From an uncultured Flavobacteriales bacterium (GTDB lineage Bacteria > Bacteroidota > Bacteroidia > CAIKAF01): a DNA stretch of 64,000 nt. The stretch lies in the NCBI GenBank assembly GCA_903837495.1, contig CAILUT010000005.1:43782-107781 (forward strand), read 5' to 3'. Below, one piece after another: positions 2,415 through 64,000 of the stretch. Below the pieces are notes generated by a model that was not told the origin of the DNA, searched no databases, and was given only the letters and a program-made list of their open reading frames with translations. The stretch's first letter is position 1, and each line of letters starts with the position of its first letter. The position numbers and the translations under genes were made by a program.

Positions 2415-4236
2415 GCGTGCCGGGGAGTTTCGTATGACTCCCCCGGATCGGATTTTCAGGCAGGTTCAAAATGAACTGCCCGGCCAAGCTATTCCCGGTT
2501 TGAAGGAGCAGGCCGAAGCATTTGTTGTGCAACCCTCTGCAGGCTTGTTTGACGGAATACAAGCAGGTTTGGCCAACCAAGTAGCTCCCGCATTGCAGGA
2601 ACAGGCCGACGCTTTTCGCCTAAATCCTTCCGAGCAGCTGTTTGAAAAAATTCAACAGCAACTTCCAGGGCAGGCCCTTCCCGCCTTGTCCGAAAAAGCG
2701 ACCGACTTCCGCCTACAGCCCTCGGCTAAGCTGTTTCAACACATTCAACGCCGCATGCAAGCACGCCGCCGCCGCCGTGCAGCGGCCCTCTTGCTCACAA
2801 TCCTCATCTTGGGCTCCGCTGCCTGGGTCTTGCCCACATTCTTTGGCGATTCAGGCCTGGGAACCGCCAACCAGAGCTCGGAAACGGCCCAAACTCCATT
2901 AAAAAATCAAAATCAAAACACCCCGGGTACAGAGAACCCAGAACAGCCCGAAGCAGAACCGGCAACTGCCACCGAAACAGCCTTTTCAGCCACCGGAGCA
3001 GAAAGCCTAGAGCCTTCAAACAGCAGCAATACCGGTACCGGCAGACCGAAGCAAAGCAGTTCGAAAAACAGAAATACGAGCGGGCAGGAAGAAGCCGAAA
3101 CAGGCAAAACCAAGGCCTCGGCAGCCTCCGAAAAAGAACAAGCAAGCGGCTTGGCTGCCAAAAACTCGGCTGGGCTACATTCCAACCGATCTGAGAAAAA
3201 ATCAACCCAACCCAACGGGGCTCGGCGTTCGGGAAGAGGGAATAGAAACGGGCAGGCGGAATCTGCCTCAGGCTTAGCCGGCGACCAAAAAGGAAAAGCC
3301 GAACTAGGTTTAAGCAAGCGTGAAAGCTGGGAGCCGCTGGAGTTGAAATGGGAAAAATACCAGGCACAGCGCATCGAACCCGTGTTTAGCTGGAGTTCCT
3401 TCAACAACCGCTGGAAGCGCCCACACATAGAAAAAGTATTTCTGCGTACTCCCCAGCGCCGCCCAGCCCGATTCTCGCTGCGCGGACAATTCGAAGCCAC
3501 GGCCTTAGCTACACAAATGGACTTTAGCGAAAACCCAGATTACCAAGGCAAAAAAAGCAGTTTGTTGAATCCCGCTTCTTATCAGGACTTAGAGTCAAGG
3601 CTTCAAACTCCCGACTTTTCATACCAGGTTCAAGCCGGGTTGGAGTTCGGGTTCCGATCGGTTTACCTGCGCACGGGGCTAAGTTTGCTGCGCTTGACCT
3701 ACCAGCAAAACGAGCTGCAATTTGAGCACAAATCATTGATTGTAAACGTACCCGTTACCGACACCCTGACCTTTACCAACAGTGCGGGAGTTGATACCAC
3801 GGTGGTGTACAGCTACATCAAGCCCGAGCTAAAAGACGTGCTAGACACCACGCGCATCACCTACTCGGCGCGGGCCACCTATGCGAGTATTCCCTTGGCT
3901 TTTGGCTACCGACACGAGCGGGGCCGATGGTTTGCCCAGGCCGACGTAGGCGTGGCTCTGAATCTTTTTATTGAGGGCCGCGGATTGGCCTACATGGCTG
4001 CCGGGGCCACAGTATTGGCTCCCACGGGTCAGGCCGATCAGGCATTGTGGAACAGCTTGGGCTTAGACGCCACAGCCCGACTCAAAGCAGGCTTAAAACT
4101 ATCGCGACGCTGGTCAGCCGCCCTGCACCTCGACTTGCGCATGGGCTTACGCCCAGTGTATTCGAGCGATCACGCCCTGCACCAAACCTATTCCGGCATG
4201 GGCCTAGGCTTCTCGCTAAACCACAGGATTTACTAG
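2371..4236 (+). CDS. anti-sigma-factor-like membrane protein with C-terminal outer-membrane beta-barrel (PorT/OMP_b-brl-like) domain
   Basis: Overlaps the 3' end of the ECF sigma gene. It has three tandem repeats of about 31 aa at the N-terminus, an R-rich stretch followed by one TM helix (AAALLLTILILGSAAWVLP), a long S/N/Q/E-rich low-complexity linker, and a C-terminal roughly 250 aa with alternating hydrophobic beta-strand pattern ending in an aromatic residue. Confidence 0.55.
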   Translation: MQFPMSVKWFELLRKRAGEFRMTPPDRIFRQVQNELPGQAIPGLKEQAEAFVVQPSAGLFDGIQAGLANQVAPALQEQADAFRLNPSEQLFEKIQQQLPGQALPALSEKATDFRLQPSAKLFQHIQRRMQARRRRRAAALLLTILILGSAAWVLPTFFGDSGLGTANQSSETAQTPLKNQNQNTPGTENPEQPEAEPATATETAFSATGAESLEPSNSSNTGTGRPKQSSSKNRNTSGQEEAETGKTKASAASEKEQASGLAAKNSAGLHSNRSEKKSTQPNGARRSGRGNRNGQAESASGLAGDQKGKAELGLSKRESWEPLELKWEKYQAQRIEPVFSWSSFNNRWKRPHIEKVFLRTPQRRPARFSLRGQFEATALATQMDFSENPDYQGKKSSLLNPASYQDLESRLQTPDFSYQVQAGLEFGFRSVYLRTGLSLLRLTYQQNELQFEHKSLIVNVPVTDTLTFTNSAGVDTTVVYSYIKPELKDVLDTTRITYSARATYASIPLAFGYRHERGRWFAQADVGVALNLFIEGRGLAYMAAGATVLAPTGQADQALWNSLGLDATARLKAGLKLSRRWSAALHLDLRMGLRPVYSSDHALHQTYSGMGLGFSLNHRIY

Positions 4237-4300
4237 TAGAGACGCAATATTTTGCGTCTCCGCAATATTTTGCGTCTGCGCAATATATCGCGTCTCCGCC
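4236..4300. repeat. REP hairpin cluster 1 (1 full + 2 degenerate copies of GAGACGCAATATTTTGCGTCTC)
   Basis: Palindromic stem GTAGAGACGC/GCGTCTCTAC seen directly. Overlaps the stop codon of the upstream gene. Confidence 0.7.
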
Positions 4301-4329
4301 GGTCGCATTCCCATACATCGGTTTTTGTT

Positions 4330-4473
4330 GGGGCGGCAGCCGGGCTTTCCGGGCTACTCCGCGGTCCAAAGCGGGCCGGTGCAAGCCCGGCAGTAGCTCC
4401 TCGCGTCGCTCTGCCGTGCCAACACCGGCAGCCGCTTTGGCCCTTGCGGGGTAGCCGCGTCAATCCCTGCCGC
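4330..4473 (-). repeat. GC-rich nested-hairpin intergenic element, copy A (inverted orientation)
   Basis: Ends GGGGCGGCAG...TCAATCCCTGCCGC. Internal reverse complement of the conserved core. About 70% GC against roughly 50% background. Confidence 0.65.
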
Positions 4474-4682
4474 GGGCGGCCTGGGTGAAAAACCAACAAT
4501 ATAGAATAGAGCCGCATGGGAACATCAAACACAATGTGTTGATTGCCAATTAATTAGACCTGCCAGCCTTGACAAAACAGGGAGATTGGCTTATTTTTGT
4601 TGGTTCAAAGAATCTAGGGAATACCGCAGCGCAATTGGGAGTTCCGCATCTCTGGATATTTTTCAAAATTAAAACGTCAAGA

Positions 4683-5402
4683 ATGGAAAAATTCAAGAAC
4701 AAATACCGCATTGCCTCGACCCGCGCCACATACTGGGATTATGGCTGGAATGCCGCCTATTTTATTACCATCATTACCCAAAATTGGTCTTGCTGGTTTG
4801 GCAAGGTGAAAAACAAAAAGATGGAATTATCAGACCTAGGCGCGTATGCAAATTCGTGCTGGTTGGAAATACCGAACCACTTCCCCTTTGTAGAATTGGG
4901 TGCTCATGTAATTATGCCAAACCACGTTCACGGCATTTTGATTATTAACAAACCGGTCGTAGAGACGCAATATTTTGCGTCTCCCGCCGGTAAATCAAAC
5001 CATAGCGACAACGTCGTAGAGACGCAAAATATTGCGTCTCCCGACGACAAATCAGATCGTAGCGACAACGTCGTAGAGACGCAATATTTTGCGTCTCCCA
5101 ACGGGAAATCAGACCGTAGCGACAACGTCGTAGAGACGCAAAATATTGCGTCTCTACAAACGCCACAAAACAAATTCGGGCCACAATCCCAAAATTTGGC
5201 GGCCATCGTTCGTGGATATAAAATAGGCGTAACAAAAAACGCCCGGTTGATTCACCCGAAATTCAAATGGCAACCCCGGTTCCATGACCACATTATACGT
5301 GATGAAAGGGCATTTAATGCCATTTCAAATTACATTTTAAAAACCCCGCCAAATGGAATTCCAATCGGTAGAGACGCACTATTTTGCGTCTCCCGCCGGT
5401 AA
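4683..5402 (+). CDS. REP-associated tyrosine transposase (RAYT; IS200/IS605-like HuH Y1 transposase) carrying an in-frame 68-aa REP-array insertion
   Basis: N-terminal YRIASTRATYWDYGWNAAYFITIIT, HuH motif VIMPNHVHGIL, then C-terminal WQPRFHDHIIRDERAFNAISNYILKTP (catalytic Tyr motif). Between the HuH and Tyr motifs sit four REP units translated as VVETQYFASP.../VVETQNIASP... Confidence 0.7.
   Translation: MEKFKNKYRIASTRATYWDYGWNAAYFITIITQNWSCWFGKVKNKKMELSDLGAYANSCWLEIPNHFPFVELGAHVIMPNHVHGILIINKPVVETQYFASPAGKSNHSDNVVETQNIASPDDKSDRSDNVVETQYFASPNGKSDRSDNVVETQNIASLQTPQNKFGPQSQNLAAIVRGYKIGVTKNARLIHPKFKWQPRFHDHIIRDERAFNAISNYILKTPPNGIPIGRDALFCVSRR
4956..5157. repeat. REP array (4 hairpins, alternating loop orientation, 53-60 bp period) inside the RAYT ORF
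   Basis: GTCGTAGAGACGCAATATTTTGCGTCTCC and GTAGAGACGCAAAATATTGCGTCTCTAC alternate. Inter-hairpin segments are near-identical (..AAATCAGACCGTAGCGACAACGTC). Confidence 0.8.
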
Positions 5403-5614
5403 TTCAAACCGCAGCGACAACGTCGTAGAGACGCACTATTTTGCGTCTCCCAACGAGAATTCAAACCGTAGCGACACCGTAGGGACGCACTATTTTGCGT
5501 CTCCCGCCGGGAATTAAAACCGTAGCGACACCGTAGAGACGCACTATTTTGCGTCTCCCAACGAGAATTCAAACCGTAGCGACACCATAGAGACGCAAAA
5601 TATTGCGTCTCTAC
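5368..5614. repeat. REP array (5 hairpins, period about 54 bp) at the 3' end of and downstream of RAYT
   Basis: GTAGAGACGCACTATTTTGCGTCTCC repeated four times, then GTAGAGACGCAAAATATTGCGTCTCTAC. Spacers are all about AATTCAAACCGTAGCGACACCGTA. Confidence 0.8.
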
Positions 5615-6541: not shown

Positions 6542-7258
6542 ATGAAAGACAGGAAAAAACCCGAAGTGGATCTCCGTAAATATGGGACTCTCATGTTTGC
6601 TCTAGCCCTTACCCTATCGGTTTCGGCGGTATTGATGGCCACCGAATTTCGGTACTTTGAAGAGCGGCTTTTGGAAATTTTTATTGCAGAAGAAGAGTTT
6701 TTGGTGCAGGAACAGGTAATCAATTACATACCACCACCGCCCTCGGCCGCTCCTAAGCCTCCCCCTCCCTCGGTTGTAGAACAGATTCGAATTGTTGAAA
6801 ACGAGGTTGAACTAGAGCAAGAAGTTGAAATCGACGTTGAAATTGACCTAGAAACTGAAGTGTCGGATCAGCAGGGAGAATTTGGTCAGCAAGAAGAAGC
6901 GGTTCAAGACGATCAGATATTTCAGATTGTGGAAGACATGCCCCGCTTTGCCGGTTGCGAAAAGGCCAAAGACATAGATGCCTGCTTTCAAGAGAAATTG
7001 TATGCGTTTTTGGGTAAAAACCTAAAGTATCCGCCCACAGCAAAAGACATGGGAATTACCGGAAAGGTGTATGTTGGTTTTGTGGTTGAAAAAGACGGCA
7101 GCGTTGGCCAGGTTACTGTGTTGCGCGACATTGGTGGTGGTTGCGGGAATGAAGCCAAGCGGGTAATTTCAAATTTACCAAATTTTACCCCCGGGAAGCA
7201 ACGTGGACGGCCTGTGCGGGTGCAGTACCAACTGCCCATTAATTTCCAACTTCGCTAA
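6542..7258 (+). CDS. tonB: energy transducer TonB
   Basis: N-terminal TM, Pro-rich PPPPSAAPKPPPPS spacer, and C-terminal TonB_C domain (MPRFAGCE...GKVYVGFVVEKDGSV...VQYQLPINFQL). Confidence 0.8.
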   Translation: MKDRKKPEVDLRKYGTLMFALALTLSVSAVLMATEFRYFEERLLEIFIAEEEFLVQEQVINYIPPPPSAAPKPPPPSVVEQIRIVENEVELEQEVEIDVEIDLETEVSDQQGEFGQQEEAVQDDQIFQIVEDMPRFAGCEKAKDIDACFQEKLYAFLGKNLKYPPTAKDMGITGKVYVGFVVEKDGSVGQVTVLRDIGGGCGNEAKRVISNLPNFTPGKQRGRPVRVQYQLPINFQLR

Positions 7259-7385
7259 AACGAGGGGTTGCGGAAATGGGGCCAAGCGCGTAATTTCAAA
7301 TATACCAAATTTTACCCCCGGGAAGCAACGTGGACGGCCTGTGCGGGTGCAGTACCAACTGCCCATTGACTTCCAACTTTGCTAA
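7138..7385 (+). repeat. tandem direct duplication (2 x about 120 bp, about 93% identity, 8-bp spacer) of the tonB 3' end
   Basis: 7138-7257 and 7266-7385 align base-for-base (GGTTGCGG[G/A]AATG...CCAACTT[C/T]GCTAA). The second copy encodes the orphan GCGNGAKRVISNIPNFTPGKQRGRPVRVQYQLPIDFQLC. Confidence 0.75.
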
Positions 7386-7659
7386 TACCAATTGCGCTTG
7401 CTTAAACCGAGAGGGCGGTGCACGGGGAACATAAAACCTGGTTGGATTTCGCCCTGAGCTTATTTTGGGCTATTGCTTGCTTTGCCTGGAAGCAGTAGCA
7501 TGAACGCTTGGGGACAGAATGTGCAAGAAACCAAATTAAAACAACAGCGTGGTCTAAAGTGAATATGCCGGTTTATTCTGGCCGTAAAAATCACAGGATA
7601 AGAATGCGTTTTTTTTAGAAAAATTCAGTGCTTTTTGGGACGCCAACTTAAGGTATCTG

Positions 7660-7887: not shown

Positions 7888-7960
7888 TTTTACTTTAAGG
7901 TGTAGGAGTGGGATTGCTAGGGCTTTAGTGAAATGAGGGCGCAGAACGATTGAGTGGCCT

Positions 7961-8103
7961 GCGGCAGGGATTGAAGAGGGTTGCCCGCAAGGTTGGCAGG
8001 GCCTGGCCCGCGTGGCGCGGAGGCGACTTTAGGAGCCCCCGCAAGCCCGCTGGGACAGCCCCTGGCAACCGCGGACTACCCCTGAAAGCCCAGCTGCCGC
8101 CCT
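7961..8103 (+). repeat. GC-rich nested-hairpin intergenic element, copy B
   Basis: GCGGCAGGGATTGAAGAGGGTTGCCCGCAAGG...GCGCGGAGGCGACTTTAGGAGCCCCCGCAAGCCCGCTGGG...GAAAGCCCAGCTGCCGCCC. Internal stem GGTTGGCAGGG/CCCTGGCAACC. Confidence 0.7.
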
Positions 8104-8146
8104 AAAGAAAATATGTATCGAAAGCTGTGAGAAGAGGCGCGGCCTG

Positions 8147-8851: not shown

Positions 8852-11800
8852 TTATGCATTTGTGCTCGATTTCTTTTTTGATTTCAGGTCAATGACCCCT
8901 GGGGCGGCAATACAGATGGAGGAGTAAGTACCCACCACAACGCCGATTAGAATGGCAAAGGAAAGGCCTTTGATGCCTTCTCCACCAAACAGGAAGGCGG
9001 CCAGCAATACGAGCATCGTTGTGGTAGATGTGTTTATTGTTCTTCCTAAGGTGCTATTCAATGCTTTGTTAATGGTCTCGGGAAGATTGGGGTTTTTCAA
9101 ATCTTTCAAATATTCCCGAATCCGGTCGAAGATAATCACCGTATCGTTGATGGAATATCCGATAACGGTAAGAACGGCAGCAATAATGCTTTGATCGATT
9201 TCGAGCGAGAATGGCAGTAGGCCGTCAAAAATCGAGAATACAGCAAGGACAAGTACAACGTCGTGGACAAGTGCTAGTAATGCGGCAGTGCCATATTGCC
9301 AGCCTTTGAAACGGATCAAGATGTAGATGAAAATGATTACAAGGGAGAGTAAAACCGCGTAAATAGATTTGATGGCGACGTCGCGTGCGATGGTGGGGCC
9401 TACAATTTCAACCTGTTCGATGCCGGTTTCGTTGTTGAGGGTGCAAAAGTCTTCAAGGCTTGGAGCGGCGGTGTAGAAACCTTTTAGAACCTCGTACAGT
9501 TCGGCCTTCACGGCTTCGTCCACTTCTTTTCCTTGTTCGTCAAGGCGGTATTTGGTTATCAAATAGATTGTATTGTTGTCGCCGTAGTACTTAACTTGAG
9601 CGGTGGTTCCATCGAATTTGGCTGAAACCGCATCGGAAATTTGGCTGGTGTTAAAGTTTGAATTGTCGAAAGCGATAACGTAGGCGCGGCCACCGTTCAA
9701 ATCGACTCCAAGGTTAAAGCCTTTGGTGGCGAAGGAAACAAAGCCAGCGGCCATCAAAACTCCCGATACAACATAGAACAGTTTGCGGCGGCCCACAAAA
9801 TTGATGTTCATGTTTGTAAACCACTTAGAGGTGACTTTGGAAGCGAATTCGAAGGACTTTCCTTTTTCAAGTTGCCATTCAAAGATCAAGCGGGTTAGGA
9901 AAATGGCCGAGAAGAGGGAAGTAAGGATACCGATAAAGAGGGTGATGGCAAAACCACGAACGGGTCCGGCGCCGAAGGCAATCAAAACAATGGCAATAAG
10001 TGCGGTGGTAATGTTGGAGTCGATAATGGCTCGATAGGCGCTAGCGTAGCCATCGGCCAGAGCGAGTTTAACGCCTTTGCCGCCTCGAATTTCTTCGCGA
10101 ATGCGTTCAAAAATCAAAACGTTGGCATCGACTGCCATTCCAATAGTCAAAACGATGCCGGTGATTCCAGCCAAGGTAAGGGTTGTACCCAAGCCAGCTA
10201 AAGTGCCCATTAAGAAGAACAGGTTGGCAAGCAAGGCAAGGTCGGCAATCCAACCGGATTTGCCGTAGTAAAAAACCATGTAAGCTAAAACAAGGAAAAA
10301 GGCAATAACGAGCGAAGCCACACCTGCGGTTCTTGCTTTTGAACCCAATGAAGGGCCAACCATAGCCAGTTCGACAACCTGAGTTCGGGTGGGGAGTTTT
10401 CCTGATTTCAGGATAGATGCAAGGGATTTAGCTTCGTCGAAGGTAAAATTACCGGTGATGCTGGAACTGCCGCCGCTGATTTTATCTTGAACCGTAGGAG
10501 CGGAATACACTCGATTATCGAGAACGATGGCAATGGACTTCCCCTTGTTTTTGTCGGTAATTTTGGCCCAACGGGAGGCGCCTTCGCCGTTCATTTCCAT
10601 TAAAACCTCGTATCCTCCGGATTTATCGTCGGCATTAAAACGGGCATCAACAACCACATCGCCTTCTAGGGCTGGGCTTTGGTCTCGGGCGTCGGAGCGT
10701 AGGGCATACAATTCAAATTGCCCTTTGCGTGGGTCGTCGTCTGAAACACCTTCAAAGGGTTTGTTGCTCCAGCGCAGCACCAAATCGGCGGGCAAGAGTT
10801 TTTTAAGGTCGGGTCGCGCCAACAGGGCATTTATGGCAATGGTATCGCGGGCTTGGTTGCGGGTATATCCCATAATGGGGCCCATGCCGTAGGAGTTTTC
10901 ACCTTTTTCATTGCTCATGATGTTTGGGAAGAAGGCACTGAACAATGGGCCGGGGTCTTGGTCATCGCCCATTTTTTCGGTTTCCTTGTTTTTTGACGTA
11001 TCTCCGGCACCAAAAGCCAGCTCGGTTGAGTCGGCATCGGCTAAGGTAGAATCGGTGGTGTTGGTATCGGTTTCGGCAATGCCTTTGGCCAGTTTTGATT
11101 CTTTGTTAAGCACCTCGATAATTTGTTGAAAACCAGGGCTTGAGAGCACTTCTGCTCCGTCGTATGTTAGCCAAAATTCCAATTTAGCGGGTGCTTCCAA
11201 AAGGTTTCGGACTTGGGTTTCATTTTGAACGCCGGGCATTTCTACCCGAATGCGGCCGGTACCGCCCACTTTTTGAATGTTGGCTTGAGTCATGCCGAAG
11301 TTGTTGATCCGGGCATCTAAAACATCAAAGGTTCTGGATAAGGCAAGGTCGGCTTCGACTTGCAGGACGGCTAAAACATCTTTGTTGGACATTTTGCCGT
11401 TGATGGCCTTTTGATTGGCGTGTCCAAAAATACCTGGGGCGGCAAGTTGAACACCTGGATTGATGCTTTGGTAGGCTTTTCCGAACAGATCCACGAAGTT
11501 TTCCTGACTGGATTTTTGCTGTTCAATGGCTTGAGCAATGGCTTTTTCGAAACCGGGGTCTTGGGGATTGTTGGCCAATTTGCGGAGTAAATCGGGCAGA
11601 GAAGCTTCTATGGTAACGTTAATTCCACCGCGAAGGTCCAAACCTAGGTTCATTTCCCGTTTCTTTGCCTCGGCATACGTTAGGGTAGGCAAGAAATCCC
11701 AAATGACAGAATGGTTTTCATCGTTGGCAATAGAATCTAGGTAAATGCGTTGTTTCACCACATCTCCACCGGCCAATTCCAGAGCCTCAGCTTCGGTAGA

Positions 11801-45967: not shown

Positions 45968-46118
45968 GGCGCCCCGGCCCCCGGATTGCAGCGGCAGGGG
46001 GCGGGTGCTGCGGGCAGGGCAGGGCCGCCGGGCGGAGGCGACTTTAGGAGCCCACGCACCGGCCAGCCCTGCCGCCCGCAGCACACGCACACTACAGCGG
46101 AAAGCCGGATAGGGCCCC
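45968..46118 (+). repeat. GC-rich nested-hairpin intergenic element, copy C (most diverged)
   Basis: Core GCGGAGGCGACTTTAGGAGCCCACGC. Long stem GGGTGCTGCGGGCAGGGCAGGGCC / GGCCAGCCCTGCCGCCCGCAGCAC. Sits in a divergent-promoter region. Confidence 0.55.
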
Positions 46119-46168
46119 CAATTAACAATTTATTTGCAGCAATTCTGCTGCGACTGCTTGGCATTCCG

Positions 46169-50485: not shown

Positions 50486-50492
50486 GGAATTT

Positions 50493-50634
50493 GGGCGGCT
50501 GCGGGCTTTCACCGGTAGTCCTCGGTTGCCGGTGGCTGGCCCAGCGGGTTTGCGGGGGCTCCTAACGTCGCCTCCGCACCACGCGGGCCAGGCACCGCCA
50601 CCCTGTGGGCTACCTGGTTCAATCCCTGCCGCAG
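50493..50634 (-). repeat. GC-rich nested-hairpin intergenic element, copy D (inverted orientation)
   Basis: GGGCGGCTGCGGGCTTTC...GGCTCCTAACGTCGCCTCCGC...GGTTCAATCCCTGCCGC. Confidence 0.7.
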
Positions 50635-50863
50635 CGGCCTCCATTGAAACGTGTTTTCTGTTCCATTGTTTGCCTCAAACCGCAGCAGCTCGACGGCCTA
50701 CATTTTAGGCCTTTCACCCACTTTGGGCCGCTGGACATACCTGGGGGGCCTTTTGCCCATCGGCTTTTCTTGTGCATGCCATCCGATTGAACAAAAAAAC
50801 ACGCATTCCACTTTGGGAATCAAATAAATTACAATAATTTAACACTCGGTTTTCAATCCCAAT

Positions 50864-51745: not shown

Positions 51746-52621
51746 ATGAAAGCTGCGGTTTGGGCTCTGCTCGTGGTTAATTTATTGTACGGCATCAACT
51801 ATGGAGTGGCCAAGTCGATCATGCCCGAACCCCTGCATCCTACCGGAATCATTTTTATGCGCTCGGCCGGAGCCCTTCTCCTATTTTGGATTGTTGCCCT
51901 AAGCCGCCCCATGGAACGCATTCAAAAAGGCGATTGGCTCCGGCTGCTTCTATGTGCTCTGTTTGGTGTTATGCTGAACCAAACCTTGTTTTTTGAAGGG
52001 CTTAACCGAAGCAATCCCATTGAATCTGCCTTGGTAATGACCGTCAGCCCTGTGTTGGTGTTTTTGTTTTCAGCGCATGCCGGATTGGAGAAGATGCAAA
52101 AAACAACTTGGGCAGGAATTCTGCTGAGCGGTGGCGGGGCTGCGGCCCTAATCCTTCATCGGCAAGAAGGCCTGGTATTTTCGCAAAGCAGTGGATTTGG
52201 GAATTTATTGATTTTCATCAACGCCGCCTCATTCGCCCTTTTTTTGGTTTTAGTTAAACCCTTAATGCAAAAATACAGTCCCATAACGGTTATGGCTTGG
52301 GTATTCACCTTTGGCATGCCCATGACAGCGGTGTTGGGCATTCCCGATTTGGCGGCAACCCCGTTGTTGGAACTTCCTGCAGGGGTTTGGTGGGCCGTTG
52401 CCTATGTGGTTATAGGCGTTACTTTTATAGCCTACCTACTGAATGTTTTTGCATTAAAACGGGTAAATGCAAGTTTGGTAAGCGCATTTATTTATTTGCA
52501 GCCGGTTGTGGCGGGCATGTTGCAAGCGTTTGGCGGGAAACTTGACTTTTCTTGGACCTTGGCTTGGTCCTGCGCAGCGGTATGTATAGGCCTATTTTTG
52601 GTAGGTAGAGCATCCAAATAA
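51746..52621 (+). CDS. DMT superfamily (EamA-like) transporter
   Basis: 10 TM helices, two EamA half-domains. 291 aa. Confidence 0.8.
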   Translation: MKAAVWALLVVNLLYGINYGVAKSIMPEPLHPTGIIFMRSAGALLLFWIVALSRPMERIQKGDWLRLLLCALFGVMLNQTLFFEGLNRSNPIESALVMTVSPVLVFLFSAHAGLEKMQKTTWAGILLSGGGAAALILHRQEGLVFSQSSGFGNLLIFINAASFALFLVLVKPLMQKYSPITVMAWVFTFGMPMTAVLGIPDLAATPLLELPAGVWWAVAYVVIGVTFIAYLLNVFALKRVNASLVSAFIYLQPVVAGMLQAFGGKLDFSWTLAWSCAAVCIGLFLVGRASK

Positions 52622-52698
52622 CCGCAGCAGCACTTCCGTTTTAAATAGGCCTATTTTTGGTAGGTAGAGCATCCAAATAACCGCAGCAGCACTTCCTT
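52594..52698 (+). repeat. tandem direct duplication (2 x about 52 bp) of the EamA gene 3' end including its stop codon
   Basis: AGGCCTATTTTTGGTAGGTAGAGCATCCAAATAACCGCAGCAGCACTTCC appears twice in tandem. Confidence 0.75.
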
Positions 52699-52736
52699 TT
52701 TAAAATGGGACTGCATCAAAACAACGGTGCGGTGAG

Positions 52737-56973: not shown

Positions 56974-57005
56974 TTCCCTTTTTTTTCTTTCTCTTTTGGG
57001 GGGCG

Positions 57006-57134
57006 GTTGCGGGCTTTCACAGGTTGTCCGCGGTTGCCGGGCATTGCCCCAGCGGGCTTGCGGGGGCTCCTAAAGTCGCCTCCGCGCCACGCGGGGCAAG
57101 CCCCGCCACCCTTGCGGGCAACCCGGTTCAATCC
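57006..57134 (-). repeat. GC-rich nested-hairpin intergenic element, copy F (inverted orientation)
   Basis: GGGGGGCGGTTGCGGGCTTTC...GGCTCCTAAAGTCGCCTCCGC...GGTTCAATCCCTACCGC. Confidence 0.7.
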
Positions 57135-57189
57135 CTACCGCAGGCCACCCAACCCCTTTCTACTCAAAATTTAAAAAATAGGCCTTTTG

Positions 57190-57225
57190 CCCTTGACAAG
57201 TTAAAACCGCCCCCGTACCTTTGCA
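57190..57225 (+). promoter_or_regulatory. strong Bacteroidetes-type promoter (-33 TTG ... 20 bp ... -7 TACCTTTG) with no protein-coding gene downstream
   Basis: TTGACAAGTTAAAACCGCCCCCGTACCTTTGCATATC matches the TTTG-N19-21-TAnnTTTG architecture. Confidence 0.45.
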
Positions 57226-57227
57226 TA

Positions 57228-57472
57228 TCACTAGTGAAAAAACGTTTGATGCTTTGATTTTTGCTTCGTCACGTAAAGGGGTGGCGAAGAACACTTCGGG
57301 TTCTTTAAGCGTGAAGTTTGATGGTGAACCACAGAAGAGCCGAACGGCAATTTTGGGGTTCATCCGGGGGTCTCAGAAATGCCTCTGGGCCTAGGCAAAG
57401 GAAACTTTGTTAAAGTCTAGGGGCGGGAATTATGGGCATGAGACGGGTGATTTGGCAACTCACCATTTTTTT
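57228..57472 (+). ncRNA. candidate small RNA (about 240 nt) bounded by promoter and intrinsic terminator
   Basis: No ORF longer than about 30 aa on plus. The 3' end GGTGA-TTTGGCAAC-TCACC hairpin + TTTTTTT sits at 57446-57472. No match to tmRNA, RNase P or SRP signatures. Confidence 0.3.
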
Positions 57473-57652
57473 AAGAGGCGTTGAGTGAAGAGGCTGGAGA
57501 AGGAAAGGCAAGAGGAAGAGGGAAGGAACAACTTTTTTAGGCAGCGTTTTTTTCTGGTTGAGGCAGGCTCGCCCAAGGGAGTCCATTCTACTGTTGCAGT
57601 TAGGATGCACCGCTATTGGACAGAACTCAACGACTTAAGCAGTCCCAAAAAA

Positions 57653-58051: not shown

Positions 58052-60333
58052 GGTATTTCCTGCCAATGGTTGTTCCACATGCGGTACGCTCCAAATACAC
58101 CCCCCACATCTATATCCAAGGGCCTTAACATAAACCGATTCACTCCAAATGCCTTGGATTGAAAGTCGTAGGCGGTTAATGCGATTCGGTACCGCATGTT
58201 TGGCCGGGCAACAAAGGTAAGCGAGCAACGTGCCCAGCCTCCATCCAAACATCGGCTTCGAGCAGGATTTGCCTGGGCTATCCATTGTCCTTGGCCCTGC
58301 TCATTCACTTCCTCAACAAACAAAACCCCATTCACTGAATTGCTTTGGCGGGCATCTACCCACAGGCTTGCTTCGTAGGCCTCTGGATTCAAACCAAGGC
58401 TGTCCAGCAAAACATGGTATTCACTTCTAGGAATCTGTTTTGCTTTATTTCCGTACGGCGGAGCCTCCCCGTAGCTTTGGTCGGCAAGCCGATTAAAATG
58501 CTTCGCTTTATTTCCGTACGGTGCCGCCCCCGGGTAGCTTTGGTCGGCAAGCAGGTTGAAATGCACGGAATCGCGCTCCGCCGCCTCTGCCAAAGGAAGA
58601 ACCCGCATCCAATCTTCAGCTCGAATAAGCCCTAAACGGTAGGTGGAATCTACCGCCAAGACCTTAAACGGCTTTCGATGCGACCACCGGGCTTGGTTCC
58701 AATCCAAATCCTTTGGATAAAGCAGAGCCAAGATCTTGCCCTTCAATGCCCGCTGAAAATGGGGGCTCGGGGTGTACCAAGGCTCGCTCGAAAAGCCACC
58801 AGTAGCTAAGGCCTGTTCTTCGTTTGGTCGAATTAATATCCCGCCTACGGTTGGCACATTCCCAAGTACACTTAGAACATAGGCCAAGCGCCGCAGCTCA
58901 ACCGGGTTTTCGCCGGCGGTCATCAAACTCCCTTCAAACAAAAAGGGTTCGGTCAGCAAGGCCGCCGGTTTTTCGGACCTCAAAAGCGCCAAACCGGCTT
59001 TAAATTCTTCCGATTGATGGGATTCGGAATACAGGTTGGGGGTTTTTAGGTGGATGTCGGTTAAAAACCGAATGTGGCCATGGGCTTCGATCCCTGCCGG
59101 CATCAAGACCAATGCCAACAAAAAACTGCGCCGAAGGGGGGCGGTGTTTTTAAGGGCAGAGTAGAAAGCCAGCCCAACCGAAAATCCAAGGACTCCGTAC
59201 ATAGGCCAAGCAAAACGCATCACAAACCGAAACTGCTTTAAGTAGGGCACCACTTCAAACAACCACGAAAACCGACTCAAACCAAACAAACCACTTGCAA
59301 AAAGCAACAAACCCAATCCCGCAAAAACAGCCGACCTTGGAAGGGCCTTAAACAGGGATTTACCATAGCCCAAAACGAAAACCCAGAGCAGGGTCCACCA
59401 TACCGACCAAGGAATAAAAGCAAACTCCCAAGCCTGGGAACTGCCTGCATCGCCAATCCACACGTTCAGCCATTCATTTACATGGCCTACCCCCGGCAGC
59501 AACCACTGGGCCAAGCTCATTTGATTGTCGGTAGCGCCCCAAGGCTCTTGGGTTCGGAAATTAGAGGCCAAATCGCTCCATTTTAAAAACACCACAAAAA
59601 GCAACAAGGGCAAGGCCAGCAGAAAGGCCCGAAACCAGGTTTGAAATTTAAAGGGCTTGGCCAACAAAACCCACAACAGAGCAAAGGAACCGTTTACTAA
59701 TCCTAAATACGGATGAATTAACACCGATAAAGCGACCCAAAAAGAGGCACTAAAAATAGGTCGAAGCGTATTGGATTGCTCGGTCGATTTTAGCAATGCC
59801 AAACATAAATACGGAAAAAGAGCGGTGTAGGCCAGTGAAAAGTTGCCGTTGTTTTTTAGCCACTGGGGGGCCAACAACGAAAGAGCTAAGGCCAAAATGC
59901 CGGCAGCCATTGCAGGCATGCCTTTGTAGCGGCCCAACCGATACCAACCCAAATGGGTAAACAGCAACTGAGCCAAAACAAGGCCATTAAACACCCCCAC
60001 CATGTAGGGCCGAAGGCTGGGAAAAAGAGAAAAGAACCCCGCAGAAAACCAACACAACAACGGATTGGCATCTAAGTAAAACAAATGCTCAGCAAAGGGG
60101 AAAAACCAAGAATCCAACCAACATCCTGAGGCATGCCCCAAAGCAAACTCGGCATACACCCGATACGCCCGATCCGCATCGCTCCAATACGAAAAAAGGA
60201 CCTGATTTAGGTGAATGGGCAGGGGCCAGTACAGCAGCAGCACCGCCACAATGGGCAAGACCCAAGCCCAAAAAAGGGTTTTTGAAGCCTCAAGCCTCAA
60301 TACAACAGGTGTTTTTTGGAGCTGTTCTTCCAC
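58048..60333 (-). CDS. YfhO-like large polytopic membrane protein (putative glycosyl/lipid transferase) with C-terminal extracytoplasmic domain
   Basis: More than 12 TM helices in the N-terminal about 450 aa, soluble C-terminal about 300 aa. Contains an internal about 60-bp tandem repeat (58430-58555) encoding (A)PYGNKAK. Confidence 0.5.
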   Translation of the reverse strand: MEEQLQKTPVVLRLEASKTLFWAWVLPIVAVLLLYWPLPIHLNQVLFSYWSDADRAYRVYAEFALGHASGCWLDSWFFPFAEHLFYLDANPLLCWFSAGFFSLFPSLRPYMVGVFNGLVLAQLLFTHLGWYRLGRYKGMPAMAAGILALALSLLAPQWLKNNGNFSLAYTALFPYLCLALLKSTEQSNTLRPIFSASFWVALSVLIHPYLGLVNGSFALLWVLLAKPFKFQTWFRAFLLALPLLLFVVFLKWSDLASNFRTQEPWGATDNQMSLAQWLLPGVGHVNEWLNVWIGDAGSSQAWEFAFIPWSVWWTLLWVFVLGYGKSLFKALPRSAVFAGLGLLLFASGLFGLSRFSWLFEVVPYLKQFRFVMRFAWPMYGVLGFSVGLAFYSALKNTAPLRRSFLLALVLMPAGIEAHGHIRFLTDIHLKTPNLYSESHQSEEFKAGLALLRSEKPAALLTEPFLFEGSLMTAGENPVELRRLAYVLSVLGNVPTVGGILIRPNEEQALATGGFSSEPWYTPSPHFQRALKGKILALLYPKDLDWNQARWSHRKPFKVLAVDSTYRLGLIRAEDWMRVLPLAEAAERDSVHFNLLADQSYPGAAPYGNKAKHFNRLADQSYGEAPPYGNKAKQIPRSEYHVLLDSLGLNPEAYEASLWVDARQSNSVNGVLFVEEVNEQGQGQWIAQANPARSRCLDGGWARCSLTFVARPNMRYRIALTAYDFQSKAFGVNRFMLRPLDIDVGGVFGAYRMWNNHWQEIP

Positions 60334-60693: not shown

Positions 60694-63180
60694 TCAACTC
60701 GGTATAGGCTTGCTTGAAGCAGGAGGCATTAGTTGCATCGCTCCTTTCACTTGGGTGCCAAGCAAGGCATATTGCAGCACCTGCTCCATGGTGCTAACGT
60801 ATTCAAAATGAATGCCGGTAAGGTAAGAGGGCTCAATTTCCTCAACATCTCGGCGGTTGTCTTCGGCCATTACAATGGTTTGAATGTTCGCCCGCTTGGC
60901 GGCCAGCACTTTTTCTTTAATTCCGCCCACGGGCAACACTTGTCCGCGCAGGGTAATTTCGCCGGTCATGGCCAGTTTTGGCCGCACTTTGCGTTGGGTA
61001 AACGCCGAAGCCAAGGCTGTAAGCATGGTTATACCAGCCGAAGGACCGTCTTTGGGTGTGGCCCCTTCGGGCACGTGCAAATGCACATTCCAATTGTCGA
61101 ACACCTCATGCGGTATTTTTAGTCGGTCCGCTTTGCTTTTTAGGTATTCAAGGGCAATATGGGCCGATTCTTTCATAACGCCCCCCAGGTTTCCGGTTAA
61201 GGTAAGCCGGCCCTTGCCTCGGCTTAAGCTGGTTTCAATAAAGAGAATGTCGCCCCCCACGGCGGTATAAGCCAAACCCACCACCACTCCGGCCTGTTCG
61301 TTGTTCTCGTATTTTTCTTTGGGTAAAGGAGGCCCTAAAATTTTGCTGACCTGTTCTTTGCTCAATTTCGCATGGAAATACTGTTCAGAGGCGGCAGCCA
61401 CAGCCGCTTTTCGAACCAAAGCAGCAATTTTACGCTCCAGGTTTCGAACTCCGCTTTCGCGGGTGTACGATTCAATAAGGAATTCCAAAACCGATTTGCT
61501 AAGCTGAATGGCGTTTTTTTCCAAGCCATGTTCTTTCAATTGCCGGTGCAACAGGTGTTTTTTGGCAATTTCTACTTTTTCTTCTACCGAATAGCCGCTG
61601 ATGTGGATGATTTCCATGCGGTCGCGCAGCGCAGGTTGAATGGATGACAGGTTGTTGGCGGTGGCAATGAACAGAACCCGACTAAGGTCAAAATCCAAAT
61701 CCAAGAAATTGTCGTGAAAGCTGTTGTTTTGTTCCGGATCCAACACTTCAAGCATGGCGCTGGAAGGGTCTCCATGCACATCTCGGCTCAGCTTGTCGAT
61801 TTCATCTAAAATAAAAACGGGATTCGCCGTAGCCGATTTTTTAAGGCTTTGCAAGATTCTGCCCGGCATGGCACCAATATAGGTGCGGCGATGTCCTCGA
61901 ATTTCGCTTTCGTCCCGCAAACCGCCCAAAGACATTCGGGTGTACTTGCGGCCTATCGCCTCGGCCACCGAACGGCCCAAGGAGGTTTTGCCGACTCCCG
62001 GAGGTCCCGCCAAGCATAAAATGGGAGCCCGCATGTCGCCGCGAAGCTTCAACACCGCCAAGTGTTCTAAAATCCGCTCTTTGACCTTTTCCAAACCAAA
62101 ATGATCCCTGTCCAGAATTTTCCGCGCCCGTTGAAGGTCAAATTGATCGTTAGAATAAACCGACCAAGGCAGATCGGTCATAAACTCCAGGTAGTTCATT
62201 TGAACCGAATAATCGGGCGCCATGCTGTTCATGCGTTCCAGCTTGGCCAACTCTTTCTCAAAGGTTTTTTGTACGGCTTTGCTCCATTTTAGCTTGCTTG
62301 CCTTTTTACGCAGTTCTTTGATGTCAATCGTTTCTCCATTGCCCAGTTCCTCTTGAATTTGCCGCATTTGTTGGTGCAAAAAATACTCCCGTTGCTGTTT
62401 GTCCATGTCCACCCGCACCTTGCTTTGAATTTGGTTTTTCAACTCAAGCAGCTGAGATTCTTTGTGCAAGGCCTGAAGCAACACGGTGGCTCTTTCTTTT
62501 AAGTCCCGCACCTCAAGCATGGCTTGCTTTTCTTCCATGGAGTTGCTTAGGTTGGAAGAAACAAAGTGAATTAAGAACGAGGGACTCTCAATGTTTCGAA
62601 TGGCGAAAGCCGCTTCGCTGGGCAGGTTGGGACTGGCTTGAATGATGTCTAAAGCCAGGTCTTTGATCGAGGAAACCATGGCGTTGAATTCCGAATCGGC
62701 CTCTTCGGGCGTTCCTTCCTCAAAAATGCTGGCCTGGGCGGTCAAATACGGTTCCTCGCTTAAAATCGCTTCAATTTGGCAGCGGCGTTTGCCTTGAATA
62801 ATGGCTGTGGTGCTGCCGTCGGGCATGCGCAGCATTTTCAAGATGCTGGCCACCGTACCAATTTCAAACAGGTCAGATTGGCTAGGGTCTTCTACCTCGG
62901 CATCGCGCTGGGCCACCACACCAATAATGCGCTTTCCTTTGTAGGCATCGCGGATCAACTTAATGCTTTTGTCTCGGCCCACTGTAATGGGAATAACCAC
63001 TCCGGGAAACAACACCGTATTGCGCAGGGGAAGAATCGGCAGTTCTTTTGGGATTTCCGACACCTCCAAATGCCCTTCCTCTTCGGTGGTCATTAAGGGA
63101 ATAAAATCTGTGTCTTCGCCAATCAAATGATATGTCATATTGTCCGTTTCGTGGTAAATGTACGGAGCTTCAAGCGCCAA
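60694..63180 (-). CDS. lon: endopeptidase La (Lon protease)
   Basis: LON N-terminal domain, AAA+ Walker [11 protein letters not shown]-terminal proteolytic domain [11 protein letters not shown] with catalytic Ser. About 828 aa. Confidence 0.9.
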
Positions 63181-63249
63181 CTTGTCGCGTGCCGATGTAA
63201 ATATCAGGAGTTTTAATGCAAATCCCTGATATTACATATCCCGTGCCAA

Positions 63250-63388
63250 GTAGAGCCGCAAAATGTTGCGGCTGATTTGCGGTGGAGACGGAAAATGTTG
63301 CGTCTGATTTGCGGTGGAGACGCAAAATATTGCGTCTCTACTGTTCCTTGATCATCAAAGGTGGAGACGCAAAATATTGCGTCTCTAC
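63250..63388. repeat. REP hairpin cluster 3 (4 copies, 31-47 bp period; first copy carries a compensated stem variant GAGCCGC/GCGGCTC)
   Basis: GTAGAGCCGCAAAATGTTGCGGCTG; GGTGGAGACGGAAAATGTTGCGTCTG; GGTGGAGACGCAAAATATTGCGTCTCTAC twice. Confidence 0.75.
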
Positions 63389-63420
63389 AGGCGATAAACG
63401 GCCACGATGCGCGGCAGGGA

Positions 63421-63544
63421 TTGACGCAACTACCCCGCAAAGGTGCCGACGGCTGGCCCGCTAGGTGCGGAGGCGACGTGAGGAGCCCCCGCAAACCAGC
63501 TGGGCCAGCCTTTCGGCACCTGCGGAGTAGTGCGGAAAGCCCGG
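63421..63544 (+). repeat. GC-rich nested-hairpin intergenic element, copy G
   Basis: GCGGCAGGGATTGACGCAACTACCCCGCAAAGG...GTGCGGAGGCGACGTGAGGAGCCCCCGCAAACCAGCTGGG...GAAAGCCCGGCTGCCGCCCCCC. Stem GGTGCCGACGGCTGGCCC/GGGCCAGCCTTTCGGCACC. Confidence 0.7.
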
Positions 63545-63563
63545 CTGCCGCCCCCCAAAAAAA

Positions 63564-64000
63564 TCACTTCCTGCCCGACCTGTCCTTGCGTTTGTATTGC
63601 AGCGCGGCCGAAGGCTCTGGCACAAAATGCCCTACCCCACCCCCGCGCGGATCGTTGAAATGCTCGGGGATTTTGCCCAACACCGTGCGCTCGGCCCAGG
63701 TTTCTGTCTTGCTGCCGTCGTCGCGGCGCTCCATCGTTATGCAGTCCTCGACCGGGCAAACCAGTGAACATAAATTGCAGCCTACGCAGTTTTCGTCGAT
63801 GATTTCAGGCACCCGACTGCCGTTGATTGGCAATGCAATGGCCTGGTGGGCGCCGTCGTCGCAGGCAATGTGGCACAGCTGACAGCCTATGCACTTGTCG
63901 GCGTTGATGCTGGCCACCACTTTGTAATGCAAATTTAAGTGCTTCCATTCCACCACGTTGGGCACGGCCTTGCCGGCGAAATCGTAGATGGTGCTGTAGC
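63564..64000 (-). CDS. 4Fe-4S dicluster domain protein, PreA/dihydropyrimidine-dehydrogenase-subunit-like C-terminus (partial; continues past window end)
   Basis: Two CxxCxxCxxxCP ferredoxin motifs (CIGCQLCHIAC, CVGCNLCSLVCP) preceded by ...VVEWKHLNLHYKVVA. The reading frame is open to position 64000. Confidence 0.6.
   Translation of the reverse strand, partial: YSTIYDFAGKAVPNVVEWKHLNLHYKVVASINADKCIGCQLCHIACDDGAHQAIALPINGSRVPEIIDENCVGCNLCSLVCPVEDCITMERRDDGSKTETWAERTVLGKIPEHFNDPRGGGVGHFVPEPSAALQYKRKDRSGRK

Follow-up and report, generated by a model that had tools for sequence, protein, structure and literature searches.

When two families of palindromic repeats lie side by side at distant places in the same genome, one family may attract the other, both may be moved by the same enzyme, or both may collect in the same kind of place. 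This question is raised by a 64-kb stretch of DNA (the window, analysed at its full length) from an uncultured freshwater Bacteroidota population, in which short REP hairpins adjoin a GC-rich nested-hairpin element at two sites. The original prediction took this recurrent juxtaposition as a sign of a shared insertion preference or of mobilisation of both repeats by the same RAYT. The two sites comprise the following features, in which R1 denotes the score obtained with a covariance model of the GC-rich element:

4235 to 4296, plus strand: REP array of site 1, one full hairpin and two 18-nt half units
4327 to 4476, plus strand: GC-rich element of site 1 (R1, 105.1 bits)
60694 to 63180, minus strand: lon protease gene, downstream of the site-2 REP array (Pfam LON_substr_bdg, AAA, and Lon_C)
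63249 to 63388, minus strand: REP array of site 2, four GTAG/CTAC "double-foot" REP hairpins
63408 to 63557, minus strand: GC-rich element of site 2 (R1, 153.8 bits; 150 nt, 71% GC)
63564 to 64000, minus strand: 3' end of a preA-like gene with DHO_dh and 4Fe-4S domains, running past the window end (gene calls from the orthologous loci L121 and L122)

The two repeat types do adjoin closely at both sites, with gaps of 30 nt at site 1 and 19 nt at site 2. The GC-rich element had been described as having opposite orientations relative to the REPs at the two sites, but in the sense of the upstream gene the relative strand orientation is the same at both, where AATATTTT loops accompany GGGGCGGCAGCC...TCAATCCCTGCCGC. 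It is the order that changes, from gene-REP-GC at site 1 to gene-GC-REP at site 2. The GTAG foot of the site-1 REP overlaps and supplies the TAG stop codon of a 621-aa gene (4234-4236), and the GC-rich element of site 2 begins 7 nt past the stop codon of the preA-like gene, in gene sense. Directly upstream of the lon start (window ~63203-63235), there is an imperfect inverted repeat ATATCAGGGA-N14-TCCTGATAT, possibly an operator or promoter element, which the orthologous loci L121-L123 and L177 have conserved.

The REP sequence GTAGAGACGCAAAATATTGCGTCTCTAC has a 5' GTAG foot and a 3' CTAC, and thus belongs to the double-foot type. It folds with -15.3 kcal/mol (z = -8.5), and with up to three mismatches allowed its 22-mer gives 24 strand-matches over the whole window, where 0 are expected. 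The units of site 2, of hairpin type GGTGGAGACGCAAAATATTGCGTCTCTAC on the plus strand, follow each other with start-to-start spacings of 32, 32, and 47 nt. The full unit of site 1 is GTAGAGACGCAATATTTTGCGTCTC, followed by the two 18-nt half units. A stem variant with preserved pairing had been noticed in the first REP of site 2, and this observation holds. On the minus strand, the stem of this unit, the first on the plus strand, reads CAGCCGC...GCGGCTC, while the other site-2 units read GAGACGC...GCGTCTC; it is a compensated A-T to C-G change that only this unit has, and the fold is kept (-12.3 kcal/mol, z = -5.7). The REP loops are asymmetric (AATATTTT versus the inverse AAAATATT). In the site-2 array all four loops have the same orientation, which rules out a REPIN or BIME, that is, an inverted REP pair with a short spacer; alternation occurs only inside and after a RAYT gene located at site 1.

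That site 1 is a RAYT locus had gone unremarked in the first description of its repeats. The relevant features are:

4683 to 5402, plus strand: RAYT gene (TnpA_REP, subclass 2.4), identified by motifs, NCBIfam, and relatives (PMC6006769)
4958 to 5157, plus strand: four in-frame REP hairpins of the RAYT gene, repeated every 57 nt, with loops that alternate in orientation
5367 to 5614, plus strand: REP array 3' of the RAYT gene, five units with a 54-57-nt period

The encoded protein has the motifs PNHVHG (HUH), KWQPRFHDH (WQ), and SNYILK (catalytic Tyr). Its top NCBIfam match is "REP-associated tyrosine transposase" (REP_Tyr_transpos) with 44 bits, which is under the cutoff of 80, and a Pfam search with this ORF gave no match; more than 7000 relatives were found, many of them named RayT. 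REPs flank the gene and also sit inside its frame (4235-4296, 4958-5157, and 5367-5614), and the last of these arrays overlaps the 3' end of the gene and occupies the spacer ahead of gcvH. Between the HUH and Tyr motifs, four in-frame 19-aa repeats, VVETQ(Y/N)(F/I)ASP, are encoded by REPs. Double-foot GTAG...CTAC REPs and in-frame REPs are the signature of subclass 2.4 (= Bertels group 4), which is known from Bacteroidetes, Cyanobacteria, and scattered other phyla (PMC6006769). The locus agrees with the REPtron of subclass 2.4 (Quentin et al. 2018, PMC6006769) in the HUH motif PNHVH, the WQ motif, and the Tyr motif NYI, as well as in the 5' GTAG/3' CTAC REPs that flank the gene and lie in frame between HUH and Tyr. 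In contrast to aligned relatives of this subclass, which have one or two 19-aa units, the in-frame insert is unusually long with its four units. The window allele further differs from the subclass-2.4 REPtron by a -1 frameshift in an A-run right after the catalytic Tyr (window 5330-5402), and not all conspecific strains have the gene. The frameshifted allele reads NYILK-TPPNGIPIGRDALFCVSRR, related alleles read NYILKNPAKWNSNR, and the alleles P0003 and P0004 read NYILKNPAKW after the Tyr motif; in intact alleles the TAG stop codon is supplied by the GTAG foot of a REP. The REPs of the window are the cognate hairpins of this subclass-2.4 RAYT. Like BIMEs and REPINs of Escherichia coli and Pseudomonas, they form regular clusters behind genes and alternate in orientation inside and after the RAYT gene. 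In contrast to BIMEs and REPINs, the site-2 array and the upstream array of site 1 are direct, with 32-nt or 18-nt periods and without inverted pairs.

The second family is more numerous than the two REP-adjacent copies suggest. R1, which was built from the window, finds exactly seven GC-rich copies in it, a density of about one copy per 9 kb. The pairing of the two families is real at two sites, but the GC-rich element is not the two-copy item it had been taken for, as only two of the seven copies touch REPs. The other five copies, all in REP-free surroundings, are:

7958 to 8106, minus strand: GC-rich element, 41 nt past the stop codon of a PMSR gene, in gene sense
45988 to 46122, minus strand: degenerate GC-rich element (44.9 bits) in a divergent intergenic region
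50489 to 50635, plus strand: GC-rich element, 4 nt past a stop codon
52733 to 52881, minus strand: GC-rich element in a convergent intergenic region
56997 to 57144, plus strand: GC-rich element, 24 nt past the stop codon of an ABC ATPase gene

Neither a REP nor a REP relic is found within 400 nt of these five elements. Together with copies from related contigs, ten copies are available from this lineage. In eight of them the element begins 4-121 nt past a stop codon, read in the direction of the respective gene, and the other two are located in divergent spacers. Some further sequences occur close to GC-rich elements. Two of them are followed by a promoter-like sequence of similar form, GCC(C)TTGACAAGTTrAAA-N9-TACCTTyGC (window 57188-57226 and L218:2990-3033), which bears a -7 box of the Bacteroidota type, TAnnTTTG; in the 420 nt after the window copy (57230-57650) there is no ORF of at least 60 aa. 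Simple tandem duplications are present at 7139-7388 (123 nt x2), 52586-52703 (59 nt x2), and 58436-58561 (63 nt x2). The first two share spacers with GC-rich elements, and the 59-nt unit apparently has one copy fewer in L121.

The GC-rich element has 70-74% GC in a genome of 49% GC, and its ends are of the form (T)nGGGCGGCAG...CTGCCGC. The whole element is an imperfect palindrome. The site-2 copy folds into one long imperfect hairpin (-104.3 kcal/mol, z = -8.5), and the fold of the site-1 copy has -89.2 kcal/mol (z = -3.8). Pairwise identity among the copies is 64-96%, and one pair of paralogues with 96% identity hints at past copying. In an alignment of the seven paralogues from this one genome, 90.6% of the cells are paired; once the partners are shifted by 1-3 columns, this share falls to 42-51%. 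Compensatory changes are present in 22 of the 49 pairs, and 0 of 500 shuffles reached the observed values, a pattern that a DNA palindrome in seven paralogues of one genome would give as well. Conserved unpaired motifs include GGGCTTTC, GCTCCTnnnGTCGCCTCCGC, and TCAATCCCTGCCGC. Searches of the whole window against Rfam at gathering thresholds gave no match for the element, and at E <=10 it gives only chance microRNA and snoRNA matches. A described RNA family can be dismissed in view of the missing Rfam match, and a tRNA or tmRNA-like gene was rejected as no match was obtained. The element is not an intrinsic terminator either, because in gene sense the T-run comes before the hairpin, that is, 5' of it, and an A-run follows on the other strand; a terminator scan picked up none of the copies. 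It was also rejected as the REP cognate of this RAYT, since its ends lack a GTAG foot with a short hairpin and only one GC-rich element was found in 243 REP/RAYT loci of other genomes. Considered as a possible MITE, the element is palindromic over its full length and has the paralogue pair that hints at past copying; no target-site duplication was seen in its flanks, and six sites compared in 2-11 sequences each had no presence/absence polymorphism.

Long imperfect-palindrome intergenic repeats that are transcribed together with the upstream gene are known as ERIC/IRU from enterobacteria and as Correia/NEMIS from Neisseria. The GC-rich element resembles them as a dispersed imperfect palindrome of 100-150 nt that lies mostly behind genes, forms subfamilies, and plausibly gives rise to an RNA hairpin. 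In contrast to these families, it has 70-74% GC and a T-run before the hairpin, there is no sequence similarity, and the sites compared have neither target-site duplication nor insertion polymorphism. It is probably a dispersed structured repeat of the ERIC/Correia kind, transcribed in the same direction as the upstream gene to form a 3'-UTR hairpin; if it acts at all, it probably acts at the level of RNA.

An alternative reading is that REP array and GC hairpin form a selected module in the 3'-UTR or between genes, for example a protector of mRNA 3' ends and an insulator ahead of lon and the RAYT gene. At both sites the two elements are co-oriented with the upstream gene, and two conserved G-U pairs of the GC-rich element are kept in the gene-sense strand only; both observations count for such a module. 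The known effects of REPs, which stabilise upstream mRNA and affect termination (PMC6006769), count in the same direction. However, five of the seven GC-rich elements have no REPs beside them, the two parts change places from one site to the other, and REP copy number and even the adjacency itself differ among near-identical strains (see below). A selected composite is therefore improbable.

Whether the two families share intergenic regions more often than by chance can be assessed within the window, which has about 25 intergenic regions of at least 30 bp, seven with a GC-rich element and three with REPs. Both of two REP loci in GC-bearing regions correspond to a hypergeometric p of 0.07, and at least two of three REP-bearing regions with a GC-rich element to p = 0.18, which is also obtained with length weighting. 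Sharing of an intergenic region beyond chance is thus not established (p 0.07-0.18, not significant), and all these adjacency statistics are based on a handful of independent events from the window and the lineage loci. The close distance appears more striking, as the probability that both pairs lie within 30 nt is about 0.005, a value that is valid only under uniform placement inside spacers. Placement is not uniform, however, as both families sit right behind stop codons. Among REP arrays of other genomes (n = 256), a stop codon is no more than 3 nt away in 16%, compared with 3% of random non-coding positions, and no more than 30 nt away in 41%, compared with 20%. In L121, the GTAG foot of a REP also supplies the TAG stop codon of a YkuD gene, and the same habit of GTAG REPs was reported by Di Nocera et al. 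(PMC3733652). As both families hug stop codons, adjacency is bound to result whenever a short spacer contains two such elements.

Related contigs extend the comparison. Three of them, L177, L218, and L228, were placed in this lineage by tetranucleotide profile. Seven REP-bearing intergenic sites of the lineage are available, namely the upstream array of site 1, the RAYT 3' array, the lon-proximal array, the middle array of L121/L177, L177:6763-7002, L218:4334-4560, and L228:1195-1340. Two of these seven sites (29%) have a GC-rich element, which matches the base rate of the window intergenic regions (7/25, 28%). Conversely, two of the ten GC sites of the lineage have REPs. Two candidates were not accepted as members of the GC family, L218:7529-7682 with 55% identity and a perfect contig-end palindrome at the end of L228. 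A search for spurious ORFs with the translated GC-rich element yielded three proteins and one usable contig, L257. On this relative's contig (L257:3797-9566) a GC-rich element without REPs lies beside a defence and mobile island with McrBC, a SinI-type restriction-modification pair, and an IS4 transposase. The IS4 transposase is multi-copy, and all its copies are on contigs of ~1.5 kb.

Orthologous loci from other metagenomes and MAGs were recovered by exact-protein look-ups. The site-2 comparison is based on an identical Lon protein, with lon DNA differing at no more than 13 of 1765 nt; the distances of 2-13 per 1765 nt do not fit a tree. The GC-rich element is identical in all four sequences carrying it (window, L121, L122, and L123), and the number of REP units beside it is three in L123, four in the window, and five in L122. 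The two elements are 19 nt apart in the window, in L122, and in L123, and 640 nt to 1.5 kb apart in L121. There, a 1.5-kb block (L121:8266-9754) with a small cysteine-rich ORF, another REP array, and a gene for a YkuD-type L,D-transpeptidase is located between GC-rich element and array. In L177, the YkuD block (L177:2066-3357) comes directly after the same lon-proximal array, unrelated genes lie beyond it, and no GC-rich element is found in 11.6 kb. The YkuD block at the lon locus is bounded by REP arrays, and its presence or absence among strains does not track the lon distances. An 18-nt spacer inside the site-2 array of the window is identical to the sequence flanking another REP array in L177, which indicates recombination between REP arrays. 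Even in L121, 10 nt of REP-array spacer, GGCCGTTTAT, adjoin the site-2 GC-rich element, so that the adjacency there may be of long standing and the 1.5-kb block may have been inserted later.

For site 1, ten loci with identical GcvH were compared. The GC-rich element has the same place and the same score in all ten, and the number of REP units upstream of it ranges from one to four; REP numbers differ everywhere. The contig of the 621-aa gene ends at the first REP, an assembly break. RAYT is usually described as a stable single-copy gene. Four of the ten strains (L125, L127, L132, and L133) lack the entire RAYT gene along with its promoter and the REPs inside it, and the junction (~9690-9770 in these loci, corresponding to window 4480-5590) reads ...ttaattag|TTCAGACGCAATATTTTGCG. 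Depending on the strain, the 8-nt loop at a given array position is either AATATTTT or AAAATATT (window 4958-5614 and arrays of L125-L134), which is due to either a loop flip or gene conversion between units. In L129 (L129:8380-8520), REP, spacer, and GC-rich element are duplicated in tandem, and the second GC copy has lost the inner ~95 nt of its hairpin by a deletion between two GGCAGCCG repeats. The RAYT may cleave and rejoin its REPs, of which this array polymorphism from strain to strain is only an indirect sign.

Taken together, the orthologous loci had been proposed as a place to look for presence/absence polymorphism of either element, and such variation is found for REP copy number and the RAYT gene, but the GC-rich elements never move. 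They occupy the same positions in every strain, with 0-4 SNPs, in 2-11 sequences per site including the four RAYT-less strains. No presence/absence polymorphism was seen at six GC sites, no GC-rich element was gained or lost, and in none of the strains compared has a REP appeared at a new GC site.

The two families also differ in their distribution beyond this lineage. The REP 22-nt palindrome GAGACGCA(A/M)NATNTTGCGTCTC occurs in at least 240 loci (L001-L120 and L135-L254) of many phyla, among them Bacteroidota, Chloroflexota, Planctomycetota, Acidobacteriota, Cyanobacteria, and CPR/Patescibacteria. This wide spread is explained by the fact that one copy is embedded in frame in every subclass-2.4 RAYT, where it encodes the invariant VE.Q..A. 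Among the 240 REP loci listed, which comprise 1.67 Mb from other genomes, there is one GC-rich element, with REPs 1.4 kb off. No GC-rich element was found in three RAYT loci of the closest other species (62 kb), which makes one match in the 243 REP/RAYT loci listed (240 REP and 3 RAYT), and a search of viral contigs with the core of the element gave no match. The GC family is thus essentially confined to this lineage. It is a separate, older, lineage-restricted dispersed structured repeat that is fixed in place in the population and absent from Rfam.

These data bear directly on the suggestion that the same RAYT moves both REPs and the GC-rich element, which would explain their joint landing. 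Both elements are hairpins, and site 1 is itself the RAYT locus. However, the ends of the GC-rich element lack the architecture of a GTAG foot plus hairpin. Across strains, its six sites show no presence/absence polymorphism whether a RAYT gene is present or not, and it is missing from REP/RAYT loci of other genomes except for the one match in 243 listed. Its copies, with identities of 64-96%, form an old family, while the REP arrays are changing now. This part of the original prediction is not supported by the data, and common mobilisation is highly improbable.

More weight has to be given to the possibility that the RAYT inserts or seeds REPs beside hairpin DNA, with the GC-rich element serving as a landing pad. 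Both REP-adjacent copies have the outer-stem variant GCTACTCCGC / GCGGGGTAGC, in which the tetranucleotides of the REP foot, CTAC and GTAG, occur and which the six REP-free copies lack. That this outer stem is found only in the REP-adjacent copies of the window set keeps such a model alive, at a low probability, and the gaps of just 19 and 30 nt with their p of about 0.005 under uniform placement point in the same direction. There is also a precedent in Thermomicrobium roseum, where GTAG-23 REPs are located inside small GC palindromes that are also found on their own in hundreds of copies (PMC3733652). In contrast, no new REP has appeared at the five other GC sites, although REP arrays are changing in those strains. 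A third GC copy of the GTAG/CTAC subtype, in L218, has its REPs 1.4 kb away, and L177, L228, and the middle array of L121 represent REP arrays without an adjoining GC-rich element. Furthermore, the order of REPs and GC-rich element differs between the sites, which a defined target geometry would not predict. Seeding of REPs beside hairpin DNA, in particular beside this subtype, is accordingly unlikely, and its most specific form, in which REP arrays are seeded next to this undescribed repeat by a RAYT that recognises its GTAG/CTAC outer stem in single-stranded DNA, is somewhat less likely still.

The association of REPs with other palindromic repeats has been described for GTAG-23 of T. roseum, GTAG-15 of A. 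variabilis, and mosaic regions of Neisseria (Di Nocera et al. 2013, PMC3733652). As in these cases, a REP family is here physically associated with a second palindromic family. In contrast to them, where REPs regularly lie inside the target palindrome, the REPs of this lineage lie beside it, on either side, and at only two of ten GC copies.

Thus, the two families are probably unrelated and meet without a mechanistic link in a common niche, the untranslated DNA just behind genes. The common position directly behind stop codons probably explains the adjacency, and the niche alone would account for it. That five of the seven GC-rich elements of the window are free of REPs and that the REP sites of the lineage have GC-rich elements at the base rate count for this reading. 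The p of about 0.005 under the uniform null, the common CTAC/GTAG outer stem, and the presence of GGCCGTTTAT beside the GC-rich element in L121 count against it. Of the shared insertion preference suggested at the outset, only a weak shared niche behind stop codons is left, and there is no sign that one element targets the other. In the mechanism proposed for this niche, unstable REP arrays would expand, contract, flip their loops, and recombine with each other, and as they grow in situ they would meet the GC-rich element, an older and fixed family, in the same 3' spacers.

As the REP-GC association is weak, little follows from the pairing as such. It is a worked example of two repeat families that seem linked in one window only because both collect behind stop codons. 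If the GC-rich element were a landing pad after all, one repeat family would steer the growth of another, and a REP family would have a defined genomic target. What is new is an undescribed, lineage-restricted 150-nt structured repeat in an uncultured freshwater Bacteroidota population. In addition, the related strains represent a natural series of a subclass-2.4 REPtron in flux, in which the RAYT gene is gained and lost, array units vary in number, loops flip, and arrays recombine.
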